DNA of 64,000 bases from a virus (lineage: Duplodnaviria > Caudoviricetes): IMG/VR virus record IMGVR_UViG_3300033273_000833, positions 128,001-192,000 of that record. The stretch is one strand, 5' to 3'. Every line of letters begins with the position of its first letter. Position 1 is the stretch's first letter. Shown piece after piece: positions 13,209 to 24,134 of the stretch. The translations under genes were made by a program, and so were the position numbers. The notes beneath the pieces were generated by a model. The model had not been told where the DNA came from and did not search any database. It saw only the letters and a list, made by a program, of their open reading frames with translations.

Positions 13209-13462
13209 TGGATGCAACAATTAAACCAATTAATAATAAGGTTAGTATGTTCGCAACTGATGAAGAATTATATGAACAATTAACTGCAAAAGAATTAATG
13301 TTAATTAAGTTGGTTAAAGTAGAAGAATATGTAGATGATTTATATAGAGCACATGATTCTGATACAAATAAAAAATTATTTCCACCTGAGAAGAGTTGGT
13401 TTAAAATAAAAGAATTATTAAGAGAGTGCAGAAAAATTAATAAAAGTAAAATAAATACTTGA
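13208..13462 (+). CDS. Hypothetical protein
   Basis: TAATG coupling. Confidence 0.65.
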   Translation: MDATIKPINNKVSMFATDEELYEQLTAKELMLIKLVKVEEYVDDLYRAHDSDTNKKLFPPEKSWFKIKELLRECRKINKSKINT

Positions 13463-13493
13463 CAAATAAGACTAAATATACTATAATTATATA

Positions 13494-13834
13494 CATAAAT
13501 TGAGAAACAAACTCAAATAAATAAAATAAATTGATCTTTAACATTTTTAACACTTTGGAAGGGCTTATAATCCTTCCTGTGGGTGACTGAACAAACCTGT
13601 CGTAAGCGGGTTAAAGTATGCAGATCCCTGTGGTGGGGATGACAGAGTCCAATCGGATGAGTCAAATGGCAAATACCACGCCTAGTCTGTAGTTCAAAGT
13701 AGGAAACTCGAAACTGAAAGTTTACGCCGAAAAGATGGAGGTATCTCAGAATCCTCCCCCACACTATATTTCCCCATCCGTGTAACCCCCACACATCCCG
13801 CCCCTCTCAGGAATATTCTTGAGAGGGGTTTTTT
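13494..13834 (+). ncRNA. Candidate structured non-coding RNA with boxA leader
   Basis: Perfect TTGACA-17-TATAAT promoter with no ATG at +1, boxA-like TGATCTTTAACA, multiple GC-rich stems, strong terminator. Confidence 0.7.
13801..13834 (+). terminator. Rho-independent terminator
   Basis: CCCCTCTCAGGA / TCTTGAGAGGGG stem followed by TTTTTT. Confidence 0.9.
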
Positions 13835-13872
13835 GTTTTGACATTTCCAGGAAACCTGCCATACTTATTATT

Positions 13873-14127
13873 ATGAAAACATTAAAAGACATATTATCAA
13901 ACTACGGATACATCACGAAACCTCAGCTTGCCGAGATCGTTGATTATTTCCCGCACATGAAGGTCGTCATTAAATGGGGAGGAATGCCCCGTGAACGGGT
14001 TCATGCTTGGGAGGCAATCCAACGCATCGAAAAGGTAGAGAACGAGGATATTGACTACTGTCGAGAAGTTTTTCTTAGTGGTAAAGATTGCGAGAATCTT
14101 AGAGTAGCACTACATATAGCAAACTAA
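13873..14127 (+). CDS. Hypothetical phage protein (leaderless)
   Basis: TTGACA-16-(TG)CATACT-7-ATG. Confidence 0.75.
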   Translation: MKTLKDILSNYGYITKPQLAEIVDYFPHMKVVIKWGGMPRERVHAWEAIQRIEKVENEDIDYCREVFLSGKDCENLRVALHIAN

Positions 14128-14187
14128 ATGGAAATTATTTTAGGTGCAATAGTAATTACAATTTGTCTCGTCTGTAAAGAAGATTAA
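14128..14187 (+). CDS. Tiny hydrophobic peptide (19 aa)
   Basis: MEIILGAIVITICLVCKED immediately after upstream stop. Confidence 0.35.
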   Translation: MEIILGAIVITICLVCKED

Positions 14188-14316
14188 TCTTTTTATTCAA
14201 TCATATCATATAATGACATAGCAAATATACATATAACAAATATATAAGTAGCAAATATACAACAAATATATAAAGCTATAATTTAAACAAAAATTTATAA
14301 AATTAAAATTCAATTC

Positions 14317-14447
14317 GTAAAGGGTTGAGCGTCAGTGTTTTGCGGAATCGCCCTGCCAAATTTCGCAATTATATGGTATTCAACAACTTACGAATCACAA
14401 AGTAGTTTTTTGCAATTTTCGCAATTATATGGTATTCAACGACTTAC
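14317..14447. repeat. 27-bp degenerate palindrome, three copies (one inverted)
   Basis: Inverted copy 14317-14343; GCAATTATATGGTATTCAACAACTTAC 14365-14391; GCAATTATATGGTATTCAACGACTTAC 14421-14447. Confidence 0.85.
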
Positions 14448-14501
14448 GACTATTTTAAAAAAAGGCTTGACTTGCGGAAGTTTTCTGTCATAATTGTATA
14501 C

Positions 14502-14879
14502 ATGATCAGAACAAAAAGCGACAAGAGATACGACATCGACTTTAGTAAGAAGGTGTTTGTATATAAGAATCTTCATAAAGACTGTTGGTCAGTCAAACAA
14601 GGCGGGCTTGTCAAGGCACACGCAGACAGCTTGGAGATGTGGGATTGCAGCTTCCAAGTAAACCAAAAGGGGCGGGCAAAAGTCATTCAAGAAAAGCGTA
14701 AGAATGTTCATGCGGGCATTTCAGGCAGGATAGACGATCTTGGTGGAACAATTGCAATTGGCACAGAAGTTACATACAACCCGTACAAGTATAGCTCTTT
14801 TGTAGAAAAAGGCACAGAAAATCCCGTATATTATGCAGGATTTGCATCATTAACCCATAACAGAGTACTAGTAGCATGA
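14502..14879 (+). CDS. Conserved hypothetical phage protein (leaderless)
   Basis: VYKNLHKDCWSV...FQVNQKGRAKVIQEKRKNVHAG...YNPYK pattern widespread in aquatic phages. Confidence 0.8.
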   Translation: MIRTKSDKRYDIDFSKKVFVYKNLHKDCWSVKQGGLVKAHADSLEMWDCSFQVNQKGRAKVIQEKRKNVHAGISGRIDDLGGTIAIGTEVTYNPYKYSSFVEKGTENPVYYAGFASLTHNRVLVA

Positions 14880-15076
14880 AAGAAGAATTAAAAAGAATAG
14901 AATGTGCAATCGACGGAGTCGCCGACGAATTATTAGAACATCGTCGTCATGGAAACATGGCGGATCTACTCAGAGTTATGCGGGACATTAATGAAAATCT
15001 ATGCACCATCAGCTATGAGCTCAAAGAGTTAGTTAATCAGAAAAAAAACCTTGACATTGAACAAAAAATTTCATAG
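14876..15076 (+). CDS. Hypothetical coiled-coil protein
   Basis: ATGA overlap. Confidence 0.7.
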   Translation: MKEELKRIECAIDGVADELLEHRRHGNMADLLRVMRDINENLCTISYELKELVNQKKNLDIEQKIS

Positions 15077-15085
15077 TATTATATC

Positions 15086-15253
15086 ATGCAAGAAACAATA
15101 GATATCACACCAAAATGGTCAGCACTCATTCCTATTATGGTTGAGGTGTTGAAGAGTCCAAAAGCAAACAGCTCAGCAAAAGCAGAAGTCACCGAAGAAC
15201 TACTTCGTCTCGCAAAGATTGTAGACGATCAAAACCAAAAAGCAAAACAATGA
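15086..15253 (+). CDS. Small hypothetical protein (leaderless, 55 aa)
   Basis: TTGACA-17-TAGTAT-6-ATG; MQETIDITPKWSALIP... Confidence 0.75.
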   Translation: MQETIDITPKWSALIPIMVEVLKSPKANSSAKAEVTEELLRLAKIVDDQNQKAKQ

Positions 15254-15474
15254 CATTATCAGAATCAATTATGGATATCGTTAGAGGTAACCTCGCATGG
15301 TCAGATCCCATGTCAACAGTTTGCCTCGATCAACATGAGCGTCATCCCGAAAAGTTTCCACTAGGGAGTGCATTCCAAAGTGAAGATGAATCTTTAGCAG
15401 ATATCATTAGAGACTTGACAGTATTACAAGATGAGCGTAGAATAGAATCATCTTTTCAATCAGCAGAACTATAA
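15250..15474 (+). CDS. Hypothetical protein
   Basis: ATGA overlap. Confidence 0.7.
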   Translation: MTLSESIMDIVRGNLAWSDPMSTVCLDQHERHPEKFPLGSAFQSEDESLADIIRDLTVLQDERRIESSFQSAEL

Positions 15475-15478
15475 AATT

Positions 15479-15682
15479 ATGACAGTATTAGACACACCCG
15501 AACAAATCGATATGTTTCGATTCCTTAGCCTCAAATCCGCACTCAAGCTAGAGTGTCTTGGAATGACTAGAAGAGGTCAATCAGCATATTCAATTATTAA
15601 AGCCGAGTACGGATTCAAAGGCAACAAGAACTCCGTCTTAGAACAAATGGAACAAATTATCAAGGAGTTTAAAAATGACTAA
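15479..15682 (+). CDS. Conserved hypothetical phage protein
   Basis: LDTPEQI..F....LKSALKLE..GM....SAY..IK...G.KG pattern common in aquatic phages. Confidence 0.75.
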   Translation: MTVLDTPEQIDMFRFLSLKSALKLECLGMTRRGQSAYSIIKAEYGFKGNKNSVLEQMEQIIKEFKND

Positions 15683-15878
15683 AGCACAGGTTGAATCACA
15701 AGTAGAGAGTTGGAATTGGAATCTCAATATCTTTGAGATTTATGATGAGCTCCGCGATGGGTATACCGCAGACGAGCAAGAACAACTTTTAACTTACGCA
15801 TATAATTTTTTCAATAAAGATAAAATGATGGTAGAACTTGCGTCCCACTTTGGAATTAACATAGGAGAAGATGAATAG
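15675..15878 (+). CDS. Hypothetical protein
   Basis: Operon packing. Confidence 0.7.
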   Translation: MTKAQVESQVESWNWNLNIFEIYDELRDGYTADEQEQLLTYAYNFFNKDKMMVELASHFGINIGEDE

Positions 15879-16032
15879 TTCAGCATTAGAATATATCCGT
15901 AAGATCCAAAATCTTTTAGAAGACAACGAAGAACTCGTAATCCATAAAAATTCTTTTGAACTTAAAGATGAAGAAAATGAAGAGAATTATGATTTTGATG
16001 TTGACATGATCAAGCAAATGTACGATAATTAA
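15871..16032 (+). CDS. Small acidic hypothetical protein (53 aa)
   Basis: AGGAG RBS, overlap with upstream gene; not in ORF track. Confidence 0.55.
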   Translation: MNSSALEYIRKIQNLLEDNEELVIHKNSFELKDEENEENYDFDVDMIKQMYDN

Positions 16033-16035
16033 ACC

Positions 16036-16293
16036 ATGACAAACACAATGCAAAACAATTACTTAGAAGCCCTATGCGAGGGAAAACCACTCGGATTACC
16101 CGAATACAACGAAGGTACAGAACAATGGGAGCTTTTCTTTGAAGAGAACCACGACGATTGGCATCCGTACTTTCAGAGAGATATAATTTCATATAGTTGT
16201 GACTCAGCTGAGGAAGCTACAGACTTATACAACTATTACAACAGAAACCCAATAGTGGCAGAACCACTAGTAGAAGAAGGAGAACAATCCTAA
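16036..16293 (+). CDS. Hypothetical acidic protein
   Basis: ORF track, operon packing. Confidence 0.7.
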   Translation: MTNTMQNNYLEALCEGKPLGLPEYNEGTEQWELFFEENHDDWHPYFQRDIISYSCDSAEEATDLYNYYNRNPIVAEPLVEEGEQS

Positions 16294-16529
16294 TGTTAAG
16301 GAAACTCAAAAACAAGTTAGCTGCTTTGTTCAGCTCAACCTATAATGTCGTGTATACTACCGAAGATGGTAGGACGCAAATGTACACCATCTCCAAGCCC
16401 ATGCACAAGCGTGAGTTTGGCAACGCTAGCGAGGGCAAGAGAGTCGTAGGCTTTCGTGCTCATTGCTTTAACCGCAACGGAATTCGTTCTTTCCGTTATG
16501 ATCGTATCATCTCTTTGGTTAGGGGGTAA
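16293..16529 (+). CDS. Stand-alone WYL-like domain protein
   Basis: C-terminal FRAHCFNRNGIRSFRYDRIISL matches the WYL signature (A.C..R...R.FR.DRI). Confidence 0.6.
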   Translation: MLRKLKNKLAALFSSTYNVVYTTEDGRTQMYTISKPMHKREFGNASEGKRVVGFRAHCFNRNGIRSFRYDRIISLVRG

Positions 16530-16532
16530 GAT

Positions 16533-16697
16533 ATGCAGAAGCGAATCGAACACTTAAGGCGCCAAGTTCGCGAGTTAGCTCATATGCTAGCTAGCGAAGA
16601 GGCGGAAGGCATTTATTTATCAGAGCATAACGAGCGCAGGTCTCGCCATAATGCGCTACTAGAAGAGCTCTATCATCTAGAGAAACGAGTCTTTTAA
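16533..16697 (+). CDS. Small hypothetical protein (54 aa)
   Basis: MQKRIEHLRRQVRELAHML... fills gap before terminator. Confidence 0.6.
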   Translation: MQKRIEHLRRQVRELAHMLASEEAEGIYLSEHNERRSRHNALLEELYHLEKRVF

Positions 16698-16732
16698 TTT
16701 CATGGTCATATCGTAATCGGTGGTTAGTGTAT

Positions 16733-16760
16733 GCCCCCTCCAATTGGAGGGGGCTTTTTT
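16733..16760 (+). terminator. Rho-independent terminator
   Basis: GCCCCCTCC-AATT-GGAGGGGGC followed by TTTTTT. Confidence 0.9.
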
Positions 16761-16828
16761 GTTGGTAATCAACGTTTTATGAAATTTTCCTAAGCGATCT
16801 TGCAATTATATGATATTCAACAACTTAA
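16754..16828. repeat. 27-bp palindrome locus (degenerate upstream site plus full copy)
   Basis: TGGTAATCAACG centred 16767; GCAATTATATGATATTCAACAACTTA 16802-16827. Confidence 0.75.
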
Positions 16829-16892
16829 GATAACTGCAAAAAAAAATTATTTTTTGCTTGCAATTAACTCACAATCTGTCATAATTATATAT

Positions 16893-17012
16893 ATGAAAAC
16901 GACAGAGATAAAGATAAGAAAACCGATCCTTTTCACTAAGGCTCGCCCGCACAAACTTAAAAACAAAATCATACATAGAAAGCTGAAGCACAAAAAATCT
17001 TTAATTTCCTAA
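16893..17012 (+). CDS. Small very basic peptide (39 aa, leaderless)
   Basis: TTGCAA-16-(TG)CATAAT-7-ATG; MKTTEIKIRKPILFTKARPHKLKNKIIHRKLKHKKSLIS. Confidence 0.6.
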   Translation: MKTTEIKIRKPILFTKARPHKLKNKIIHRKLKHKKSLIS

Positions 17013-17057
17013 AATTAATTCTTGACAAAACACTAAAACTCAACTATTATTATACTT

Positions 17058-17906
17058 ATGAATAACGAACAAAAAACCAACAATCTCCGCATCTGTGGCG
17101 GTGAGCACAAAGTAGTAGAAATCGACCAAGTTAGAGCAGTTCAGACTCCGCCTATCGAGTTTCGTAAGGAACTCAACAAGAATGGCGAGCGTTCAATCTC
17201 TTACCAACCGATCTCTCATTCTCTTCTTATTGATAAAACTCGCAATCATCTTGAGCAAGCGGGCTTTACTATCGAGGCAGAGTGCCATAACCTAGCGAGA
17301 AACGATCAAAGATACTTTGGTCTGTACCAAGTTTCTCATCCTAAAAGAGAAGCTTCAGACCGAGGCACTATCGTAGGGCTTCGCAATGCCCATGACAAGT
17401 GCTTCCCTGCAGGACTTTGTGCAGGTGATGCTCCTTTTGTCTGTGACAATCTTATCTTTACCAACGAGGTCAAACTTGCTCGTAGGCATACCAAGAACAT
17501 TCTCAATGAGCTTGACCATGTTATTGCTCGTACTCTTGGCAGACTCTTCAACTTTTGGGTTGCCCAAGATAGTAGGATTGATGCCTACAAAGAACATGAG
17601 CTTAAAAATGCTCAAGTCAACGATCTTGTGATCCGTGCTTGCAAGGCAGGTGCTTTGCCTAAGTCAAAGATCATTGATGTTGTTGACCAATGGGAGAAAT
17701 CCGATCATCCCGAATTTTGGGATAGGAATGTAAACTCATTGTACAACGCTTTCACAGAGGTTTACAAGGGTAACCTTACCGCATTACCTCAACGCTCCGA
17801 AGCATTGCACTCCGTGCTTGACTCCGAAGTGGGCTTTGATTCATCAAGCTTTAAGCAGGATGAGATAATCGAAGCCGAGGTAGTCGGTGCAGGTGACCCC
17901 TTCTAA
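17058..17906 (+). CDS. DUF932-family protein
   Basis: YQPISH...GLRNAHDKCFPAGLCAG...FVCDNLIF...RHT...SLYNAFTE pattern. Confidence 0.8.
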   Translation: MNNEQKTNNLRICGGEHKVVEIDQVRAVQTPPIEFRKELNKNGERSISYQPISHSLLIDKTRNHLEQAGFTIEAECHNLARNDQRYFGLYQVSHPKREASDRGTIVGLRNAHDKCFPAGLCAGDAPFVCDNLIFTNEVKLARRHTKNILNELDHVIARTLGRLFNFWVAQDSRIDAYKEHELKNAQVNDLVIRACKAGALPKSKIIDVVDQWEKSDHPEFWDRNVNSLYNAFTEVYKGNLTALPQRSEALHSVLDSEVGFDSSSFKQDEIIEAEVVGAGDPF

Positions 17907-17932
17907 GGTTGCTGGTCATATCGTGTCGTTCA

Positions 17933-17960
17933 GCCCCCTTCCAATCGGAAGGGGGTTTTT
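17933..17960 (+). terminator. Rho-independent terminator
   Basis: CCCCCTTCC-AATC-GGAAGGGGG followed by TTTTT. Confidence 0.9.
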
Positions 17961-17965
17961 CTTTT

Positions 17966-18040
17966 GCAAGTGACTGAGTATCAGTTAATTGCGAAAATCG
18001 CCTAAGAAAAATTTTAATTATATGATATTCAACGACTTAT
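17966..18040. repeat. 27-bp palindrome locus (inverted copy plus forward copy)
   Basis: GCAAGTGACTGAGTATCAGTTAATTGC 17966-17992; TTAATTATATGATATTCAACGACTTAT 18014-18040. Confidence 0.85.
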
Positions 18041-18105
18041 GACAAAGTGAAAAAAAATGAAAAAAGGGGTTGACAGATGTCCCCAACTTGTCTAGTATTG
18101 TATAC

Positions 18106-18846
18106 ATGATTAAAACGACACTACTCACTTCAGGTAACCAAAAAATTGTCAAGGGCGAAAAACTTGGTTACATCACAAAAGGAATTCACTTAGCTCCAGC
18201 CAACCTTGCGGGCTACGAAGTTTGCCAATGGCGTTCTAAAGGTTGCACAATGGCTTGTTTAAACACAGCAGGTCGTGGTCAAATGAATTCCGTTCAAGCT
18301 TCACGCATTGCCAAGACAAAGTTATTCTTTGAACAGAAAAAAGATTTCATGATTAAGCTTTGCAAAGAAATCGCTTCAACAATCAAATCTGCAAACAAGA
18401 AAGAAATGAAAGCGGTTTTCCGTCTCAATCTCACAAGTGACATCGCATGGGAAGATGTTTACATGAAAGATCCAAACTATAACATTTTTGAATACTTTTG
18501 TGCAGAACAATTCTACGACTACACAAAGTCATTCAAGAGAATGTGTGCTTATCTTGGCAAGCCATTCACTAAAGATGAACAAAAATTTCCATCTAATTAT
18601 CACTTAACCTTTTCTCGCTCAGAGCATAACGATAAGAAGTGCGAAATGGTGCTTGCTATGGGTGGGAATGTTGCCGTTGTGTTTCGCAATCAACTTCCTA
18701 AGACTTGGAAGGGTTATGAAGTTGTCAATGGTGATGATACCGACTTGCGTTTCTTAGACAAGAAAGGAGTGGTCGTTGGGCTTATCGAAAAAGGTATGGC
18801 AAAGAAAGATGAGACAGGCTTCGTACAGGAAGGAGTGGACTCATGA
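18106..18846 (+). CDS. Gp88-like phage protein (leaderless)
   Basis: LAPA...C...S.GC..ACLNTAGRG...RIAKT..F...RLN.TSDI.WE...FYDYTK...YHLTFS.SE...GDD.DLRFLD..G..VGL..KG.A. Confidence 0.75.
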   Translation: MIKTTLLTSGNQKIVKGEKLGYITKGIHLAPANLAGYEVCQWRSKGCTMACLNTAGRGQMNSVQASRIAKTKLFFEQKKDFMIKLCKEIASTIKSANKKEMKAVFRLNLTSDIAWEDVYMKDPNYNIFEYFCAEQFYDYTKSFKRMCAYLGKPFTKDEQKFPSNYHLTFSRSEHNDKKCEMVLAMGGNVAVVFRNQLPKTWKGYEVVNGDDTDLRFLDKKGVVVGLIEKGMAKKDETGFVQEGVDS

Positions 18847-19010
18847 GCGATACTTATTACGACTCAGCCGAATCCGTTATGATATCACAAGAGCGGGCAT
18901 TTCAAGAGCTTACAAACCACGGTTGCCAAGAATTCGAAGAGTTCCTGGCGGACATGGGCGACAAGGAAGAATACTCAGCTCAGGCAGTGCTTGAATGGCT
19001 AGGATATTAA
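18843..19010 (+). CDS. Small hypothetical protein (55 aa)
   Basis: ATGA overlap; ends YSAQAVLEWLGY, a phage-typical pattern. Confidence 0.7.
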   Translation: MSDTYYDSAESVMISQERAFQELTNHGCQEFEEFLADMGDKEEYSAQAVLEWLGY

Positions 19011-19047
19011 ACACTTTAAAACAATTAAAAATTTTATACAATCATAT

Positions 19048-19212
19048 GTGGACTACGAAGAATATATTTTTTGCCTTTACCTTTTTAATGAATGCGCGCA
19101 GGACCTGGACGGATTCCTGGAAGCCTTTGACGTTATCGACATGGCCTTTCCGCGAACTTGCAGAGTTTTAGCGGACCAGGGATTCTTTCATAAAGACTTG
19201 TGCTTCAATTAA
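19048..19212 (+). CDS. Possible small protein (GTG start, 54 aa)
   Basis: VDYEEYIFCLYLFNECAQDLDGFLEAF... open frame in GC-richer island. Confidence 0.4.
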   Translation: MDYEEYIFCLYLFNECAQDLDGFLEAFDVIDMAFPRTCRVLADQGFFHKDLCFN

Positions 19213-19381
19213 TTGCAAGAAAACCCTATCCATTTTTGCAAGACGTTGAACCATAGGCATTTATAAAATCAAAACTATACAGACAAAAATTAAAATCGAA
19301 TTTACTGAAAAAAAAGGTTGACTTTACTTAAAAAAATGTCATACTTATAGGTATAGATTAACTTAACAAAGGAATATTATT

Positions 19382-19789
19382 ATGGGATTAGATCAGTCAG
19401 CATACGCAACTAAAGACAATCAACACGAAGATATAGCTACATGGAGAAAGCATAACAGGCTTCAAGGTTGGATGGAAGACTTATGGGAGCACAAAGGTAG
19501 ACCAAACTTTAACAAAGCAGACGCTACTCCGATGGGCGACTTCAACTGCATACCCGTAGAACTAACTCTCGAAGACATTGATTCACTAGAATATGCAATC
19601 AACAACTTTGAGCTACCCGAAACAGGTGGATTCTTTTTCGGCAATGATTCTTATTTTTGGACAGATGAAGAAGGTAATCCTTATCCCGATAATCATTACT
19701 ACTACAAAGACAATGATCTTTATTTCATCAAGAAGGCTCGTGATCTAATCAACAAAGGTTGGAAAGTATTCTACGACTCTTGGTGGTAA
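19382..19789 (+). CDS. Conserved hypothetical phage protein
   Basis: MGLDQ.AY...WRKHNRLQGWM...FNC..V.LT.EDI..LE......LPET.GFFFG...VFYDSWW family pattern. Confidence 0.85.
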   Translation: MGLDQSAYATKDNQHEDIATWRKHNRLQGWMEDLWEHKGRPNFNKADATPMGDFNCIPVELTLEDIDSLEYAINNFELPETGGFFFGNDSYFWTDEEGNPYPDNHYYYKDNDLYFIKKARDLINKGWKVFYDSWW

Positions 19790-19833
19790 AAAAACTCTTG
19801 ACATAACAACTTTAATTTTATAGAATTTATATT

Positions 19834-20208
19834 ATGATTAAAGCACTAAAATCATTCGATGACTTAAAATTCGGTCCTCATCCTCACGCAAAAGACATGG
19901 GAGTTGTAGCAAGTCTAACTCTTGACAATGGCTACGCTTTTAGCGTTGTCGCCAATACTGAAGGCGGTAATCTGTTTTACGGCAATCATCCCGATAACTA
20001 TGAGGTTGCAGTATTTAATCCAGCAGGTCAATTCGTTCCTCTCTCTGTTTCGGACGATGTAATTGGTTGGCAACCTCCACATCAAATCACTTCATTAATG
20101 CATCAATTTGAGATTGACGGATTTCTTCATGAAAAATTACTCGTTGATCTTCGATCAGAATTCAATGAAAAAGTACTAGCGGAGCAAGAAGCAAGATTTA
20201 ACGCTTGA
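19834..20208 (+). CDS. Conserved hypothetical phage protein (leaderless)
   Basis: FDDLKF...NGY..SVV....YG....YEVAV...DVIGW pattern; TTGACA-17-TAGAAT-7-ATG. Confidence 0.8.
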   Translation: MIKALKSFDDLKFGPHPHAKDMGVVASLTLDNGYAFSVVANTEGGNLFYGNHPDNYEVAVFNPAGQFVPLSVSDDVIGWQPPHQITSLMHQFEIDGFLHEKLLVDLRSEFNEKVLAEQEARFNA

Positions 20209-20262
20209 CTTTTAATCAATCTTATACTATACTTATATCATAACAATCAGATAAACTAAACT

Positions 20263-20499
20263 ATGACAAAAAAACAAAAACAAGCACTAAGTAAGGTTAA
20301 AACCTATACTCCTCATAATGTCAACAATCGTGACGAAAAGATTTGGTTCACATATGTTAACAAGAACAGAGTTCCCGTCTCTGCTTACTACGATACAACT
20401 AACGGATCATTCGTATCAGTTGTCAAGGGTTCTCAGTACAATGGCATCGCATTCCGTAAGGGCGTCGCCAAGAGAGTAATCTCAAAGATTCTTGGGTAA
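20263..20499 (+). CDS. Hypothetical basic protein
   Basis: Own promoter near 20205. Confidence 0.75.
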   Translation: MTKKQKQALSKVKTYTPHNVNNRDEKIWFTYVNKNRVPVSAYYDTTNGSFVSVVKGSQYNGIAFRKGVAKRVISKILG

Positions 20500-20576
20500 T
20501 GGAACTACTATTTTTCACTCCGTGGATATTCGTATTTTATATGATGTTCTCGGATTTGTTAAGTGAGGATTCATAG
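20499..20576 (+). CDS. Tiny hydrophobic peptide (25 aa)
   Basis: TAATG coupling; MELLFFTPWIFVFYMMFSDLLSEDS. Confidence 0.4.
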   Translation: MELLFFTPWIFVFYMMFSDLLSEDS

Positions 20577-20603
20577 TCGTTTATATCTTAGGTCAACTAC
20601 AAG

Positions 20604-20634
20604 CCCGCTAGCCTAAAAACTAGCGGGTTTTTTT
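20604..20634 (+). terminator. Rho-independent terminator ending the rightward early block
   Basis: CCCGCTAG / CTAGCGGG stem followed by TTTTTTT. Confidence 0.9.
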
Positions 20635-20746
20635 GTAAATAGGCAAATAGGCCAAATATAGATAAATAGGAGAGAATTTCGAGCGGTTTTCGAACTAACC
20701 AATTCAACTAAAAAGTTGTAAAATTCTTTTTTGCCTCCCCAGTTTC

Positions 20747-20773
20747 GCAATTATATGATAATCAACGACTTAC
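20747..20773. repeat. 27-bp palindrome copy
   Basis: GCAATTATATGATAATCAACGACTTAC. Confidence 0.85.
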
Positions 20774-20925
20774 TGACTAGATAAGATCGGGGCTTTTGTT
20801 TTTTTGCTGAGCTTGCGGGCTATACGCATGGCGTTCGCGTGGCTCGTGGCGTTGTCTACTAGCTTGCCAAAAAGTCTGATATCAAACCAATTGGTAAAGT
20901 TTGGGTTTTTGTCTACATTTATCAT
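20770..20925 (-). CDS. Small hypothetical protein (51 aa), paralogue of 23638-23814
   Basis: MINVDKNPNFTNWFDIRLFGKLVDNATSHANAMRIARKLSKK...; not in ORF track. Confidence 0.7.
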   Translation of the reverse strand: MINVDKNPNFTNWFDIRLFGKLVDNATSHANAMRIARKLSKKTKAPILSSQ

Positions 20926-20929
20926 AGTA

Positions 20930-21115
20930 TTATGCAAAGAATGGATGAAGCCTTACATCCGAAAAGCGGATGCCAACCTTGCGGTTGGTGCGATACGGGC
21001 GAACCATTGCGATTCTTCCGAGATCTTCATGATCTGTTGGTTTGATAAACTCGAAGAGTTTGCCGTCGCGTGAAATGAGCAAATCGCCCTTTTTGAATTG
21101 ATCTCCGTAAGCCAT
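20930..21115 (-). CDS. Hypothetical protein, possible small beta-barrel
   Basis: QFKKGDLLISRDGKLFEFI... Confidence 0.65.
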   Translation of the reverse strand: MAYGDQFKKGDLLISRDGKLFEFIKPTDHEDLGRIAMVRPYRTNRKVGIRFSDVRLHPFFA

Positions 21116-21121
21116 AATTTT

Positions 21122-21304
21122 TTAGTGTTGAGTTACTACATTGAAACGAGGAGAGTTGAGATTCTCTTCTCTTTTGATTGTTCTAAGGTGTGAAAGACTT
21201 GAGGCAGTCCGAACCCGTGGGTAATCGGTTCCTGTGTCGAAGATCTTAACAGACCAATGCGTTGACCATTTTTTGATTCTAACTTGTATTTTATCGTTTA
21301 ACAT
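21122..21304 (-). CDS. Hypothetical protein (leaderless, 60 aa)
   Basis: TTGCAA-17-TATAGT-6-ATG places start at MLNDKIQ. Confidence 0.7.
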   Translation of the reverse strand: MLNDKIQVRIKKWSTHWSVKIFDTGTDYPRVRTASSLSHLRTIKREENLNSPRFNVVTQH

Positions 21305-21356
21305 ATTATTACTATAAGAAATTTTTTTTGAAATTGCAAGAAAAAAGTGATTTTTT

Positions 21357-21542
21357 TCACTCCCATTCGGAGTGAAAGCCCCAATCAATGTCGGGCTGTT
21401 CCTCAAAGTCGAGGAGGGCAACCTTATCTTGAAGGTCGCCGATTTCGTTGCGGATCGCAACGCGATCAGCGGAAGTGAGAACGGAGTCCGCAAGGACTTC
21501 GTGGAGGAGAGAGATTTTGTCGAGCATTTCAGTTTTAGTCAT
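21357..21542 (-). CDS. Hypothetical protein
   Basis: Own promoter (-35 ends 21611). Confidence 0.7.
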   Translation of the reverse strand: MTKTEMLDKISLLHEVLADSVLTSADRVAIRNEIGDLQDKVALLDFEEQPDIDWGFHSEWE

Positions 21543-21674
21543 ATCTTTTTTTTGGTTAAATTGTTTATCTTAGTATATGTATAACATAGCACAGAAAAGG
21601 GCAAAAGTCAAGTTTTTTTTGAAAAAAGATTCGATTATTTTTTTGCACAATTATATTTTTGCCTAGCCAGATTT

Positions 21675-21701
21675 GCAATTATCTGACTTTCAACGACTTA
21701 G
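21675..21701. repeat. 27-bp palindrome copy
   Basis: GCAATTATCTGACTTTCAACGACTTAG. Confidence 0.85.
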
Positions 21702-22006
21702 AAGACAAGAGGATCGGGCAATGAATTAGGAGCCGCGAACCAATCGTTTGCGTCAATTACTTCGCCGTTTAGTACAGGCTCGAATTTGAATTGAGAAACA
21801 TTTGCATTGGCTATGCCGTTGACGCGTTCGCGTGTGGTCGGAGTATTCCAGCCCGCAAGTGACCAACGCACAAGCCCGTCGGCGTCACGCTTTACAATTG
21901 CGTTGCCATGTAGCCAAACGGTTTGCCCGTCTGTCTCGGTGTTTCCGACTTTTAAGGATGTGCCAGCATTGAAGGCGTTTCTTATTTGTTCTGTAACTTT
22001 TCTCAT
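21698..22006 (-). CDS. Conserved hypothetical phage protein
   Basis: MRK....I..AF......K.GNT.......V.LHGN.I......L..AGW.T.TT.ER.NG pattern. Confidence 0.8.
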   Translation of the reverse strand: MRKVTEQIRNAFNAGTSLKVGNTETDGQTVWLHGNAIVKRDADGLVRWSLAGWNTPTTRERVNGIANANVSQFKFEPVLNGEVIDANDWFAAPNSLPDPLVF

Positions 22007-22033
22007 ATCTTTATTATTAATGATTTTGTGTGA

Positions 22034-22243
22034 TTATGCAAGCGGAAAAAAGGAAAAAAAGAGTTTTTGTGCAAGTAAATTTTGTGCCCGCTCTTCGGCT
22101 TCTTCTTCTTGCTGTTCTAGTTTCTCAAGATCAATTTCTGCCTGAATTACTTTTATTTGAGATTGGATGTGTCCAGCGTTTGCATCGAAGACATGATCTT
22201 TGATAAGTTGCTCTAGTTTACTGATTTCTTTTTTTATGTTCAT
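22034..22243 (-). CDS. Hypothetical coiled-coil protein (leaderless)
   Basis: TTGCAA-17-TATAGT-6-ATG. Confidence 0.7.
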   Translation of the reverse strand: MNIKKEISKLEQLIKDHVFDANAGHIQSQIKVIQAEIDLEKLEQQEEEAEERAQNLLAQKLFFSFFPLA

Positions 22244-22295
22244 GATATAACTATAAGAAAATTTTTATTTAATTGCAAGCTAAAAAGAAAGTTTT

Positions 22296-22487
22296 TTACG
22301 CAACCCACTCGACAAGCTCGAACTTGCGAGGCAAGCCAAACTTTGCGAGATCTTTGTTTAAGTCTTCAATGGATGCGTGGTGCTCGCATTTCATCATTAC
22401 ATTACGCTCGACGACTTCGCCGCTTTTGCGATCAATTATATTTACTTTGGCGATGAAGCCGTTTACTTGTTTATCATTTTTAATCAT
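22296..22487 (-). CDS. Hypothetical protein
   Basis: Own promoter (-35 ends 22521). Confidence 0.7.
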   Translation of the reverse strand: MIKNDKQVNGFIAKVNIIDRKSGEVVERNVMMKCEHHASIEDLNKDLAKFGLPRKFELVEWVA

Positions 22488-22574
22488 ACCTTACTATCGC
22501 ATAAAAAACGCAAAAAGTCAAGAAAAACTTTCGACTATTTTTTTGCACAATTCTACTTTTGGTAGGCTAGTCTC

Positions 22575-22601
22575 GCAATTAGCTGACTAGCAGTAACTTA
22601 G
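22575..22601. repeat. 27-bp palindrome copy (degenerate)
   Basis: GCAATTAGCTGACTAGCAGTAACTTAG. Confidence 0.7.
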
Positions 22602-22862
22602 GTAATCGTCTATATCGTCGAAGTTTGCATATGCAAAAGGTGTGCTTCGCTGTCTTGTACCACTATTATAGGCAGATTGTGCATCTTCTAGTATTCCAAG
22701 CTTCTTGAGATAGGATATTGCACCTTTATCGTAGAATGGCACACCATGGTAGCCTAGCGTCCAGGCGAAGTCAATTGCTTTGTCGGGGTCATCATCTAAG
22801 TAGGCATCCTTGGCGATCTTGCCTGATTCTCTCATTTTAGATTCTAATTTTGTATAGCTCAT
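22587..22862 (-). CDS. Hypothetical protein
   Basis: TAATG coupling to upstream gene. Confidence 0.7.
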   Translation of the reverse strand: MSYTKLESKMRESGKIAKDAYLDDDPDKAIDFAWTLGYHGVPFYDKGAISYLKKLGILEDAQSAYNSGTRQRSTPFAYANFDDIDDYLSYC

Positions 22863-23098
22863 TACTTAGCCTTTCTTTCTTTGTAGATTACTGCTTGGTA
22901 TGCCTTGCGAGCTTCTTGCACTGCATGGAGAGCGTCGAGGATTGCCATGCCTTGGGTGATGGTCAAGGTTTGGTCGCCTTCGGTGTTGGTTGACTCGGCA
23001 AGGAAGTTGAGGTTACCCTCGGCTTTAGATAGGGCAAGCCCTAGGTCGAGCTTGCTACGAAACTTGTCGATTGTTGTAGTTGTAGTTGTAGTTGTCAT
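22862..23098 (-). CDS. Hypothetical protein with N-terminal poly-Thr
   Basis: Own promoter; ACAACT microsatellite encodes MTTTTTTTT. Confidence 0.7.
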   Translation of the reverse strand: MTTTTTTTTIDKFRSKLDLGLALSKAEGNLNFLAESTNTEGDQTLTITQGMAILDALHAVQEARKAYQAVIYKERKAK

Positions 23099-23132
23099 AT
23101 GTGTTATATACTAAGGTAGTTGATGTTAAAAG

Positions 23133-23327
23133 TCAAGCATTTCTTTCTACTGATTTCCATCCAAAAGCTTTTACTTTATCTTGATGGCGGGCTTGTGGCA
23201 ACATTGCCTTGAGTTCAGCAATGCGGGCGAGCTTCCAATCTATCTCGCTTTGATCCATTTTACCTTTCCACATTTGCATTTGTAGTTTGTCTAATCTTAT
23301 TTCTCTTTGTATTTGTTCTTCTGTCAT
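23133..23327 (-). CDS. Hypothetical protein (leaderless)
   Basis: TTGACA-17-TAGTTT-6-ATG. Confidence 0.75.
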   Translation of the reverse strand: MTEEQIQREIRLDKLQMQMWKGKMDQSEIDWKLARIAELKAMLPQARHQDKVKAFGWKSVERNA

Positions 23328-23370
23328 ATCTATAAACTAGCAATCTTTTCTTGTTTTGTCAAACTTTATT

Positions 23371-23448
23371 TTACTTTTTTTTAGCTATTACAAACTTAAG
23401 TAAAATCTTTTCTCTTTCAGTTAGTTGTGTTGTATCAATCTTTATCAT
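23371..23448 (-). CDS. Tiny peptide (25 aa, leaderless)
   Basis: TTGACT-17-TATGTT-6-ATG; MIKIDTTQLTEREKILLKFVIAKKK. Confidence 0.5.
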   Translation of the reverse strand: MIKIDTTQLTEREKILLKFVIAKKK

Positions 23449-23536
23449 ATATACAACATAGCAAAGAAATGCTAAAAAGTCAAGAAAAACTTTAAACTAT
23501 TTTATTGCACAATTCTACTTTTGCTAGAGCAATCGC

Positions 23537-23563
23537 ACAATTATATGACTATAAGCAACTTAC
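23537..23563. repeat. 27-bp palindrome copy between divergent promoters
   Basis: ACAATTATATGACTATAAGCAACTTAC. Confidence 0.7.
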
Positions 23564-23637
23564 AACAAAGTGAAAAAAACTTTAATTTTTTTTAAAAAAC
23601 ACTTGACTTTTGCAGAAAAATTTCTTATATTTAGAGC

Positions 23638-23814
23638 ATGATTAAGATTGAGAAAAACGAAAACATTTCACGCTTTTGGAACATCTTCGCCTTCGGCAAG
23701 TTCGTCAAGGAGATCGAAGGGCGAGCCAAAGCATTCAGCTATGCCAAGGCTCTTGCACAAGAGAATGACCAAAAGTTTTTGGTCGATCACAAAAAAAGAA
23801 TCATTGAGGCTTGA
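23638..23814 (+). CDS. Small hypothetical protein (58 aa, leaderless), paralogue of 20770-20925
   Basis: TTGACT-17-TATATT-6-ATG; MIKIEKNENISRFWNIFAFGKFVKEIEGRAKAFSYAKALAQE... Confidence 0.75.
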   Translation: MIKIEKNENISRFWNIFAFGKFVKEIEGRAKAFSYAKALAQENDQKFLVDHKKRIIEA

Positions 23815-23846
23815 CATTACAACCCAACTATACTAGATTATATACT

Positions 23847-24134
23847 ATGGATAACATCGAAAGAATTCGCCAAGCAGTAGAAAACGCCGAGCAAGGTTTC
23901 CGCCTCGCTCCTAGATTTGCATCATTGCAAGAAGAACTCCAAGAAGAGATTCAAGCTGAAGAGCTTGTAGTCAATCATGGTTTACTTCAAGCAAGTGATG
24001 ATGACATCAGAGAAGAACACGCTTCTCTTGATTCAGTCGAGTATGATATGGATGATGTCGATTATGACATGGACGAGAACGAGGTTGACATGACTTCTCT
24101 CAGTCCTGCAATGCGTGAGATCTTCGGAGAATGA
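23847..24134 (+). CDS. Hypothetical acidic protein (leaderless)
   Basis: TTGACA-17-TAGATT-7-ATG. Confidence 0.75.
   Translation: MDNIERIRQAVENAEQGFRLAPRFASLQEELQEEIQAEELVVNHGLLQASDDDIREEHASLDSVEYDMDDVDYDMDENEVDMTSLSPAMREIFGE

Follow-up and report, generated by a model that had tools for sequence, protein, structure and literature searches.

The stretch of DNA analyzed here (64 kb, referred to as the window) comes from an uncultured marine phage and carries a folded RNA that is real and transcribed separately, a known RNA family found in a new context. The body of this RNA is not a new class but a divergent representative of manA RNA, an already catalogued family. In the reading that we favor and consider reasonably probable, the locus is a stand-alone early phage RNA gene with a probable Nus-type leader, whose product would self-associate like other manA RNAs.

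A manA RNA (RF01745) was the sole match to an Rfam covariance model in the 64-kb window, and the copy is the single one in the 203,067-bp virus record that contains the window. The first-pass annotation had proposed a novel RNA class. As the manA match is full-length and above threshold, this claim falls; nothing was found in support of the suggestions that the RNA is catalytic or serves as a protein decoy. The description of a non-coding, independently transcribed and highly structured phage RNA was borne out by its own promoter, its terminator and its conserved fold, and the stated lack of tRNA or tmRNA hallmarks agrees with ARAGORN and Rfam, which detected neither in the 64-kb window. The order of helices P1 to P9, the GUGACUGAA junction, the GUGGUG of loop L5 and the ACCA of loop L7 are as in the Rfam manA family (Table 1). 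The manA body has a GC content of 47%, and the stability of its single-sequence fold is modest, with z = -2.4 for the plus and z = -1.2 for the minus strand.

Table 1 Features of the RNA gene and its borders in window coordinates. Identities are mean pairwise values among 16 co-linear relatives, that of the 13768..13799 spacer being among relatives. Helix and loop names follow the supplement of 10.64898/2026.07.01.735769.
Feature	Position	Strand	Description	Identity
Sigma-70-type promoter	13459..13487	+	-35 TTGACA 13459-64, 17-nt spacer, -10 TATAAT 13482-87; score 12/12	
Leader hairpin TTGAG-AAACAAA-CTCAA	13500..13516	+	boxB-like position	0.91
boxA-like word TGATCTTTAACA	13532..13543	+	11/12 to E. 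coli boxA TGCTCTTTAACA	0.89
manA RNA fold (RF01745)	13557..13767	+	85 bits against cut-off 55.2; model 1-192; E 3e-20	0.74 (manA body)
P1	13557-62/13572-77	+	GGAAGG/CCTTCC, co-varying	
P2	13578-83/13758-63	+	TGTGGG/CCCACA, outer closing helix of Rfam model; invariant 24/24	
P3a	13586-87/13616-17	+	invariant in relatives	
P3b	13595-600/13606-11	+	AACCTG/CGGGTT, co-varying	
P4	13620-25/13685-90	+	co-varying	
P5	13626-28/13636-38	+	inner three pairs of ATCCC/GGGAT, co-varying	
L5 loop GUGGUG	13630..13635	+	complementary to L7; conserved loop of Rfam model	
P6	13640-43/13661-64 plus 13647-50/13655-58	+	TGAC/GTCA and GTCC/GGAT, co-varying	
P7	13668-70/13680-82	+	GGC/GCC, co-varying	
L7 loop UACCAC	13674..13679	+	complementary to L5 (5 Watson-Crick pairs + 1 G-U); includes ACCA of model	
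P8b	13711-14/13720-23	+	AAAC/GTTT, GAAC/GTTC in relatives; co-varying	
L8 region CUGA	13714..13717	+	complementary to UCAG in L9 (13746-13749); read by eye for the window	
P9	13737-41/13753-57	+	GGAGG/CCTCC, co-varying	
Spacer	13768..13799	+	pyrimidine-rich, poorly conserved	0.45
Intrinsic terminator	13800..13837	+	13-bp stem (hairpin 13800-13829), 4-nt loop, T-run	
Next gene's promoter	13838-65	+	TTGACA-16-CATACT; region 13838..14127 marks the RNA-gene boundary and lies outside the RNA gene	
Leaderless 84-aa ORF	within 13838..14127	+	ATG 13873; 58-95% identical in 30 loci	
Promoter hexamers				0.93-0.98
Neutral spacers				0.45-0.54

The fold was assessed by compensatory changes, using RNAalifold on 20 clade sequences and per-pair counts over 24 relatives. 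Compensatory double changes were seen in 25 of the 54 pairs that make up the RNAalifold consensus, which recovers P1, P2, P3a/b, P4, P5, P6 (two segments), P7, P8b and P9. Helices P1, P3b, P4, P5, P6, P7, P8b and P9 co-vary (20 relatives) and P2 and P3a are invariant, the invariance of P2 in all 24 sequences being neither support nor contradiction. Among the helices drawn earlier from the single sequence, GGAAGG/CCTTCC, AACCTG/CGGGTT, TGAC/GTCA, GTCC/GGAT, GGC/GCC and GGAGG/CCTCC are backed by compensatory changes. For ATCCC/GGGAT the inner three pairs are supported and the outer pairs are not, and AAAC/GTTT holds with the AAAC at 13711-14, which replaces the copy at 13704-07. The helix CCTA/TAGG shows zero compensatory change and competes with the co-varying P7. 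The CCCACA at 13788, considered as an alternative partner of TGTGGG, is missing in 22 of the 24 relatives, though single-sequence folding prefers it, and a pairing of CTTTAAC in the leader with GTTAAAG in the body showed no co-variation in the alignment.

The P8a helix of the Rfam model is not formed in this clade. At the site where the model has P8a, the pair 13695-13734 co-varies perfectly (C-G in 11, G-C in 7 and T-A in 3 sequences) with no support for its neighbouring pairs, and could be a tertiary or lone pair.

The same relatives bear on a 93-aa protein that could be encoded on the minus strand (13513-13794). Its frame is open in the window and in 5/23 relatives, but a stop-free minus-strand frame across the body exists in only 6/24 sequences (window included), stops interrupt all three minus frames in 11/24, and body lengths differ by non-multiples of three. 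The 93-aa protein has no Pfam match, and substitutions are paired across helices and not codon-like. Homologues, proposed at the outset as the test between this ORF and compensatory pairs, thus preserve the pairs and not the ORF. From these sequence comparisons a coding reading of the stretch is effectively excluded, and we regard it as extremely improbable.

Relatives were collected in two sets. For the syntenic set, the 84-aa protein encoded downstream of the RNA was used as query and retrieved the 30 loci given in Table 1; the upstream protein retrieved nine. A manA RNA above the cut-off was found in 20/20 relatives tested (61-93 bits), namely 19 syntenic loci and one further locus on a 210.8-kb contig binned into a MAG labelled Cellvibrionales. 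The entire unit, consisting of promoter, hairpin, boxA-like word, manA, a sequence-variable terminator and the separate promoter of a leaderless next gene, is retained in about 30 syntenic relatives, which stem from other marine samples. The classic set was obtained by a pattern scan of IMG/VR followed by Rfam and comprises 20 manA copies of 122-197 bits. Given these scores, the syntenic relatives evidently form a distinct, lower-scoring manA subgroup, and their phage lineage is not T4-like. Genes for rIIA and rIIB are present in the carrier phage. No INPHARED phage has a TerL more than 25% identical to that of the carrier, and DNA searches against the INPHARED phages (blastn, megablast) gave no match. 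A clade-specific pattern scan of a genome collection returned two matches, one of which, in Algoriphagus, is a chance hit inside a coding region without manA.

Like the manA motif as originally described (Rfam RF01745; PMC2864571), the window copy is of marine phage origin and lies right after an early sigma-70-type promoter region. In comparison to classic cyanophage-type copies it scores far lower (85 versus 122-197 bits), lacks P8a, has an extended P6 without a GNRA loop and carries a 9-nt loop in L1 instead of GACG. It also has a conserved 63-nt leader, its own terminator and a position other than a 5'-UTR, and its carrier is not a T4-like cyanophage. In the 20 classic copies, the fold starts ~5-10 nt past a sigma-70-type -10 and is mostly followed directly by an ORF, with a tRNA in two cases and a terminator in one. 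This ORF often begins with MSFADLKK or MKIFLDTAD, which we take to be gp32-like and transaldolase-like, respectively.

Several further features were seen around the manA copies. In four classic loci, L045, L038, L036 and L087, a second conserved hairpin-like element (GACCTAAGATGCAAC...GGGGCAGATGGTC) lies directly past manA and precedes a tRNA, a transaldolase-like ORF or a gp32-like ORF. In the classic cyanophage-type loci L045, L019, L086, L093, L057 and L113, the -35 TTGACA of the manA promoter sits inside the loop of the preceding terminator hairpin, so that terminator and promoter are fused; an example reads GAGGG-TTGAC-TCCCTC, followed by a T-run. Relatives have tRNA genes in the neighbourhood of the RNA gene, at a distance of 1.6 kb on its upstream or 3 kb on its downstream side (L131:1113-1187, L133:790-947, L138:864-1061, L127:5989-6061 and L146:6032-6105).

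The promoter of the manA unit is, as first described, a perfect TTGACA-17-TATAAT without a start codon at +1, unlike its neighbours. Transcription is predicted to start at ~13494, and the window sequence contains no ATG within 14 nt after the -10. Among 16 relatives, the two hexamers reach identities of 0.93 and 0.96, compared with 0.69 in the spacer between them. Nine neighbouring promoters, at 13.8-24 kb of the window, have an ATG 6-7 nt past the -10 and would give rise to leaderless mRNAs; the many sigma-70-type promoters of this layout (13838-24000) confirm a leaderless early-gene programme. The neighbouring promoters have in common an initial transcribed motif, TATATACAT(G), which the manA promoter shares in the form TATATACATAAA.

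At its 3' end the unit is closed by a strong intrinsic terminator, as had been noted from the sequence; 32 nt separate it from the manA fold. In 24/24 distinct relatives this position is taken by a hairpin (-21 to -31 kcal/mol) with a T-run, the stem sequences being unrelated. The next gene follows with a promoter of its own, which in relatives reads TTGACA-16/17-CATACT with hexamers 0.98 identical, and its ATG lies 6-8 nt past the -10. The encoded 84-aa ORF has no Pfam match. In the spacer before the terminator, CCCCCACAC is the second of two copies within 13756-13794, 30 nt apart; this copy (13786-94) is non-conserved, the segment that holds it is common only to the window and L122, which suggests that the pyrimidine-rich stretch recently underwent a local duplication or insertion.

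This layout speaks to the established view of the family. manA has been a riboswitch candidate since its description (Weinberg et al. 2010, PMC2864571) and is typed 'Cis-reg' in Rfam. Applied to the window, binding of a ligand to the fold would decide whether the terminator hairpin at 13800-13829 forms, and hence would control read-through into the 84-aa gene. The short distance between fold and terminator would suit such a switch, as would the position of most classic manA copies between a promoter and an ORF. However, an expression platform would call for a conserved pairing between aptamer and terminator, and the terminator stems differ wholly among relatives despite the conserved fold. No conserved anti-terminator is thus possible, and the terminator looks constitutive. 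The cis-regulatory label rests on a 5'-UTR position, and here a terminator and a separate promoter stand between the RNA and the next gene in 24/24 relatives. Since that gene is served by a strongly conserved promoter of its own and is leaderless, the manA RNA is not its leader. In addition, extra RNA modules are inserted inside the manA unit in relatives, and no manA ligand has been found since 2010. We consider a cis-acting riboswitch at this locus quite improbable and favor the stand-alone RNA gene.

RNA-library contigs from four separate studies cover 13537-13764. Such contigs show no start, strand or level, and the flanks that they leave uncovered are not evidence of silence. They are consistent with an abundant stable RNA, with DNA carry-over as a possible source. 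One of them begins at 13537.

Between promoter and body lies a part of the unit that differs from classic manA loci. The leader hairpin TTGAG/CTCAA was confirmed in the window; its stem is kept in relatives with differing loops and reads TTAAG/CTTAA in one lineage. The boxA-like word takes the forms TGTTCTTTTACA, TGTTCTTTAAAA or TGTTCTTTAATA in relatives. The first-pass annotation had read these elements as an rRNA-style boxB/boxA leader. The 11/12 word is indeed present and conserved, but the match as such is at chance level in this AT-rich window, with 0.76 matches expected and at least one in 57 of 100 shuffles, and several boxA-similar words occur elsewhere in the phage genome, unlinked to RNA genes. 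Since the match alone is non-significant, the weight of the word comes from its conservation in relatives only. By the identities in Table 1, hairpin and boxA-like word are conserved to about the same degree as the promoter hexamers and are under strong sequence constraint. The composite of a hairpin, an A-rich linker and G[A/T]TCTTT[A/T]A is present as a single copy in the 203-kb genome and in each relative, always upstream of manA.

In some relatives one or more extra folded modules of ~60-140 nt lie between the boxA-like word and manA (L122:2573-2700, L134, L139:2527-2690, L140:1869-2000, L142 and L126:700-910), and a further TTGAG...CTCAA stem closes some of these modules. This suggests a modular make-up of the RNA gene, and because the insertions sit past the boxA-like word, the leader stays promoter-adjacent.

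In rRNA operons, the anti-termination leader comprises a boxB hairpin, boxA and boxC, and acts with NusA, NusB, NusE, NusG and SuhB. The phage unit resembles such a leader in that a promoter-proximal hairpin and then a boxA-like word precede a long untranslated structured RNA, and an intrinsic terminator ends the unit; a consensus boxA word near the promoter of an untranslated transcript is thereby present. It differs in that base 3 of the phage word is A or T and not C, in the hairpin-boxA gap of 15 nt and in a transcript of only ~340 nt. The MAG that holds one of the relatives has an rrn leader made up of a promoter, a small hairpin and CGTTCTTTAACAA, and the core TCTTTAACA is identical in the window word, E. 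coli boxA and this rrn boxA. The DNA round the rRNA operon of that MAG is AT-rich (31-36% GC), and the host link, a single phage-sized contig binned into the MAG, is weak. Taken at sequence level, Nus-type anti-termination at the phage leader is plausible.

Downstream of boxA, the same MAG rrn leader (L162:1230-1330; the MAG that holds L160) contains GTGTGGGTG, at the position where E. coli presumably has boxC. The 8-mer TGTGGGTG occurs in this rrn leader and, without variation, as the 5' strand of P2 throughout this manA clade (window 13578-13585), where classic manA has GGGAG instead. The sharing may be a coincidence.

The RNA gene could also be as described here with a leader that does not serve as a Nus site. 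At 13500-13527, overlapping the leader hairpin, a weaker promoter-like sequence (TTGAGA-16-TAAAAT) scores 10/12, so that the conserved bases might belong to a tandem promoter with a start near 13534, or to the binding or processing site of another factor, the boxA likeness being coincidental in AT-rich DNA. The site fits the same conserved leader bases as TTGAGA-16/18-TAAAAT, its spacing remaining 16-18 nt where relatives have longer hairpin loops, its start would fall inside the boxA-like word, and the RNA contig that begins at 13537 would agree with such a start; the chance expectation of a boxA match points the same way. A promoter would not call for conservation of the 3' arm of the hairpin, which lies in the would-be spacer, is conserved and changes jointly with the 5' arm (TTAAG/CTTAA). 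The identity of the core to both the E. coli and the MAG rrn boxA also counts against a leader of another kind. So does the direction of change in relatives, whose variants (TGTTCTTT...) shift towards, and not away from, what we take to be common bacterial boxA forms. On balance we hold a leader other than a Nus site to be rather unlikely and retain the Nus-type leader as part of the favored reading.

The loops of the body are of interest in view of recent cryo-EM structures of other manA RNAs (Ren et al. 2026 preprint, 10.64898/2026.07.01.735769). Pentamers are the building block of all the assemblies seen there, namely decamers, an octamer and an icosahedral-like cage of 60 subunits. According to the supplement, L5-L7' forms a kissing loop between molecules in each of the four structures described, with L8-L9' as a second interface in the cage former A0F1. 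This self-assembly was seen in vitro, for other family members and in an un-reviewed preprint. In the window RNA the same interface loops are complementary, and they co-vary in relatives. Five or six contiguous L5/L7 pairs are possible in 15 of the 22 relatives scored (two more were not extracted) and three contiguous pairs in the other 7. A two-sided change from U-A to C-G occurs in L125, where it was read from the alignment, and in L127; one-sided changes in other relatives convert the G-U into A-U or G-C. For L8/L9, CUG(A)/(U)CAG is kept in scored relatives, with a joint change to CUAAA/UUUAG in L131 and L133; the L9 scoring pattern failed to match the window, L121 and L122. Classic copies are unable to test loop covariation, since they were chosen by a pattern that fixes GTGGTG.

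The first-pass annotation had interpreted GTGGT/ACCAC as a pseudoknot within one molecule. The complementarity is real and extends to six pairs, but since L5 and L7 are intermolecular in the solved manA assemblies (10.64898/2026.07.01.735769), the intramolecular interpretation did not hold up. As the window loops are L5 and L7 by position (GUGGUG and ACCA), their pairing is by analogy most likely a contact between molecules and not a pseudoknot within one; covariation itself is blind to this distinction, and for the intermolecular step the basis is the preprint. In the periphery, the helices L1, P6 and P8 differ from those of the cage- and decamer-forming manA RNAs, so that the stoichiometry of the window RNA is not predictable. 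The large bacterial and phage RNAs ROOL and GOLLD are likewise structured, non-coding, often phage-borne and assemble into RNA-only multimers, which are dihedral (as cited in the supplement of 10.64898/2026.07.01.735769). They measure several hundred nucleotides and are unrelated to manA in sequence and fold.

Combining these observations, we propose that an uncultured marine phage of ~203 kb has a free-standing early gene whose product would be an untranslated RNA of ~340 nt with a manA core. Transcription of the unit would begin near 13494, directed by host-type sigma-70 RNA polymerase signals, and end near 13836 at a constitutive intrinsic terminator. The boxA-like word may recruit host NusB/NusE-type factors, which would shield the sole untranslated early transcript from Rho and may help its folding, as in rRNA operons. 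The finished RNA could then self-associate through its L5-L7' and L8-L9' loops into pentamer-based closed assemblies, as other manA RNAs do in vitro.

A further-reaching version is speculative and, in our estimate, unlikely: that a whole clade of ~200-kb marine phages exploits the rRNA anti-termination machinery of the host at an early stage of infection and so makes large amounts of a self-assembling manA RNA, that the RNA-only particles formed from it, pentamers or cages, fulfil a separate function inside the cell, and that manA RNAs are generally structural products and not riboswitches. If true, such particles might enclose or present something in the infected cell.

The advance is incremental with respect to the family, which was known; unusual is the free-standing gene with a conserved rRNA-like leader. 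The RNA-only cages formed by manA in vitro (10.64898/2026.07.01.735769) came without biological context, and the preprint gives no in-vivo role. In the present locus and its ~30 relatives, manA appears as an independent, strongly promoted and terminated gene with an rRNA-operon-like leader that is under sequence selection. The loop pairs corresponding to the assembly interfaces are maintained by compensatory change, which, together with the stand-alone layout, argues against the cis-regulatory label. The locus thereby offers a concrete system for asking whether RNA cages form and matter in phage infection.
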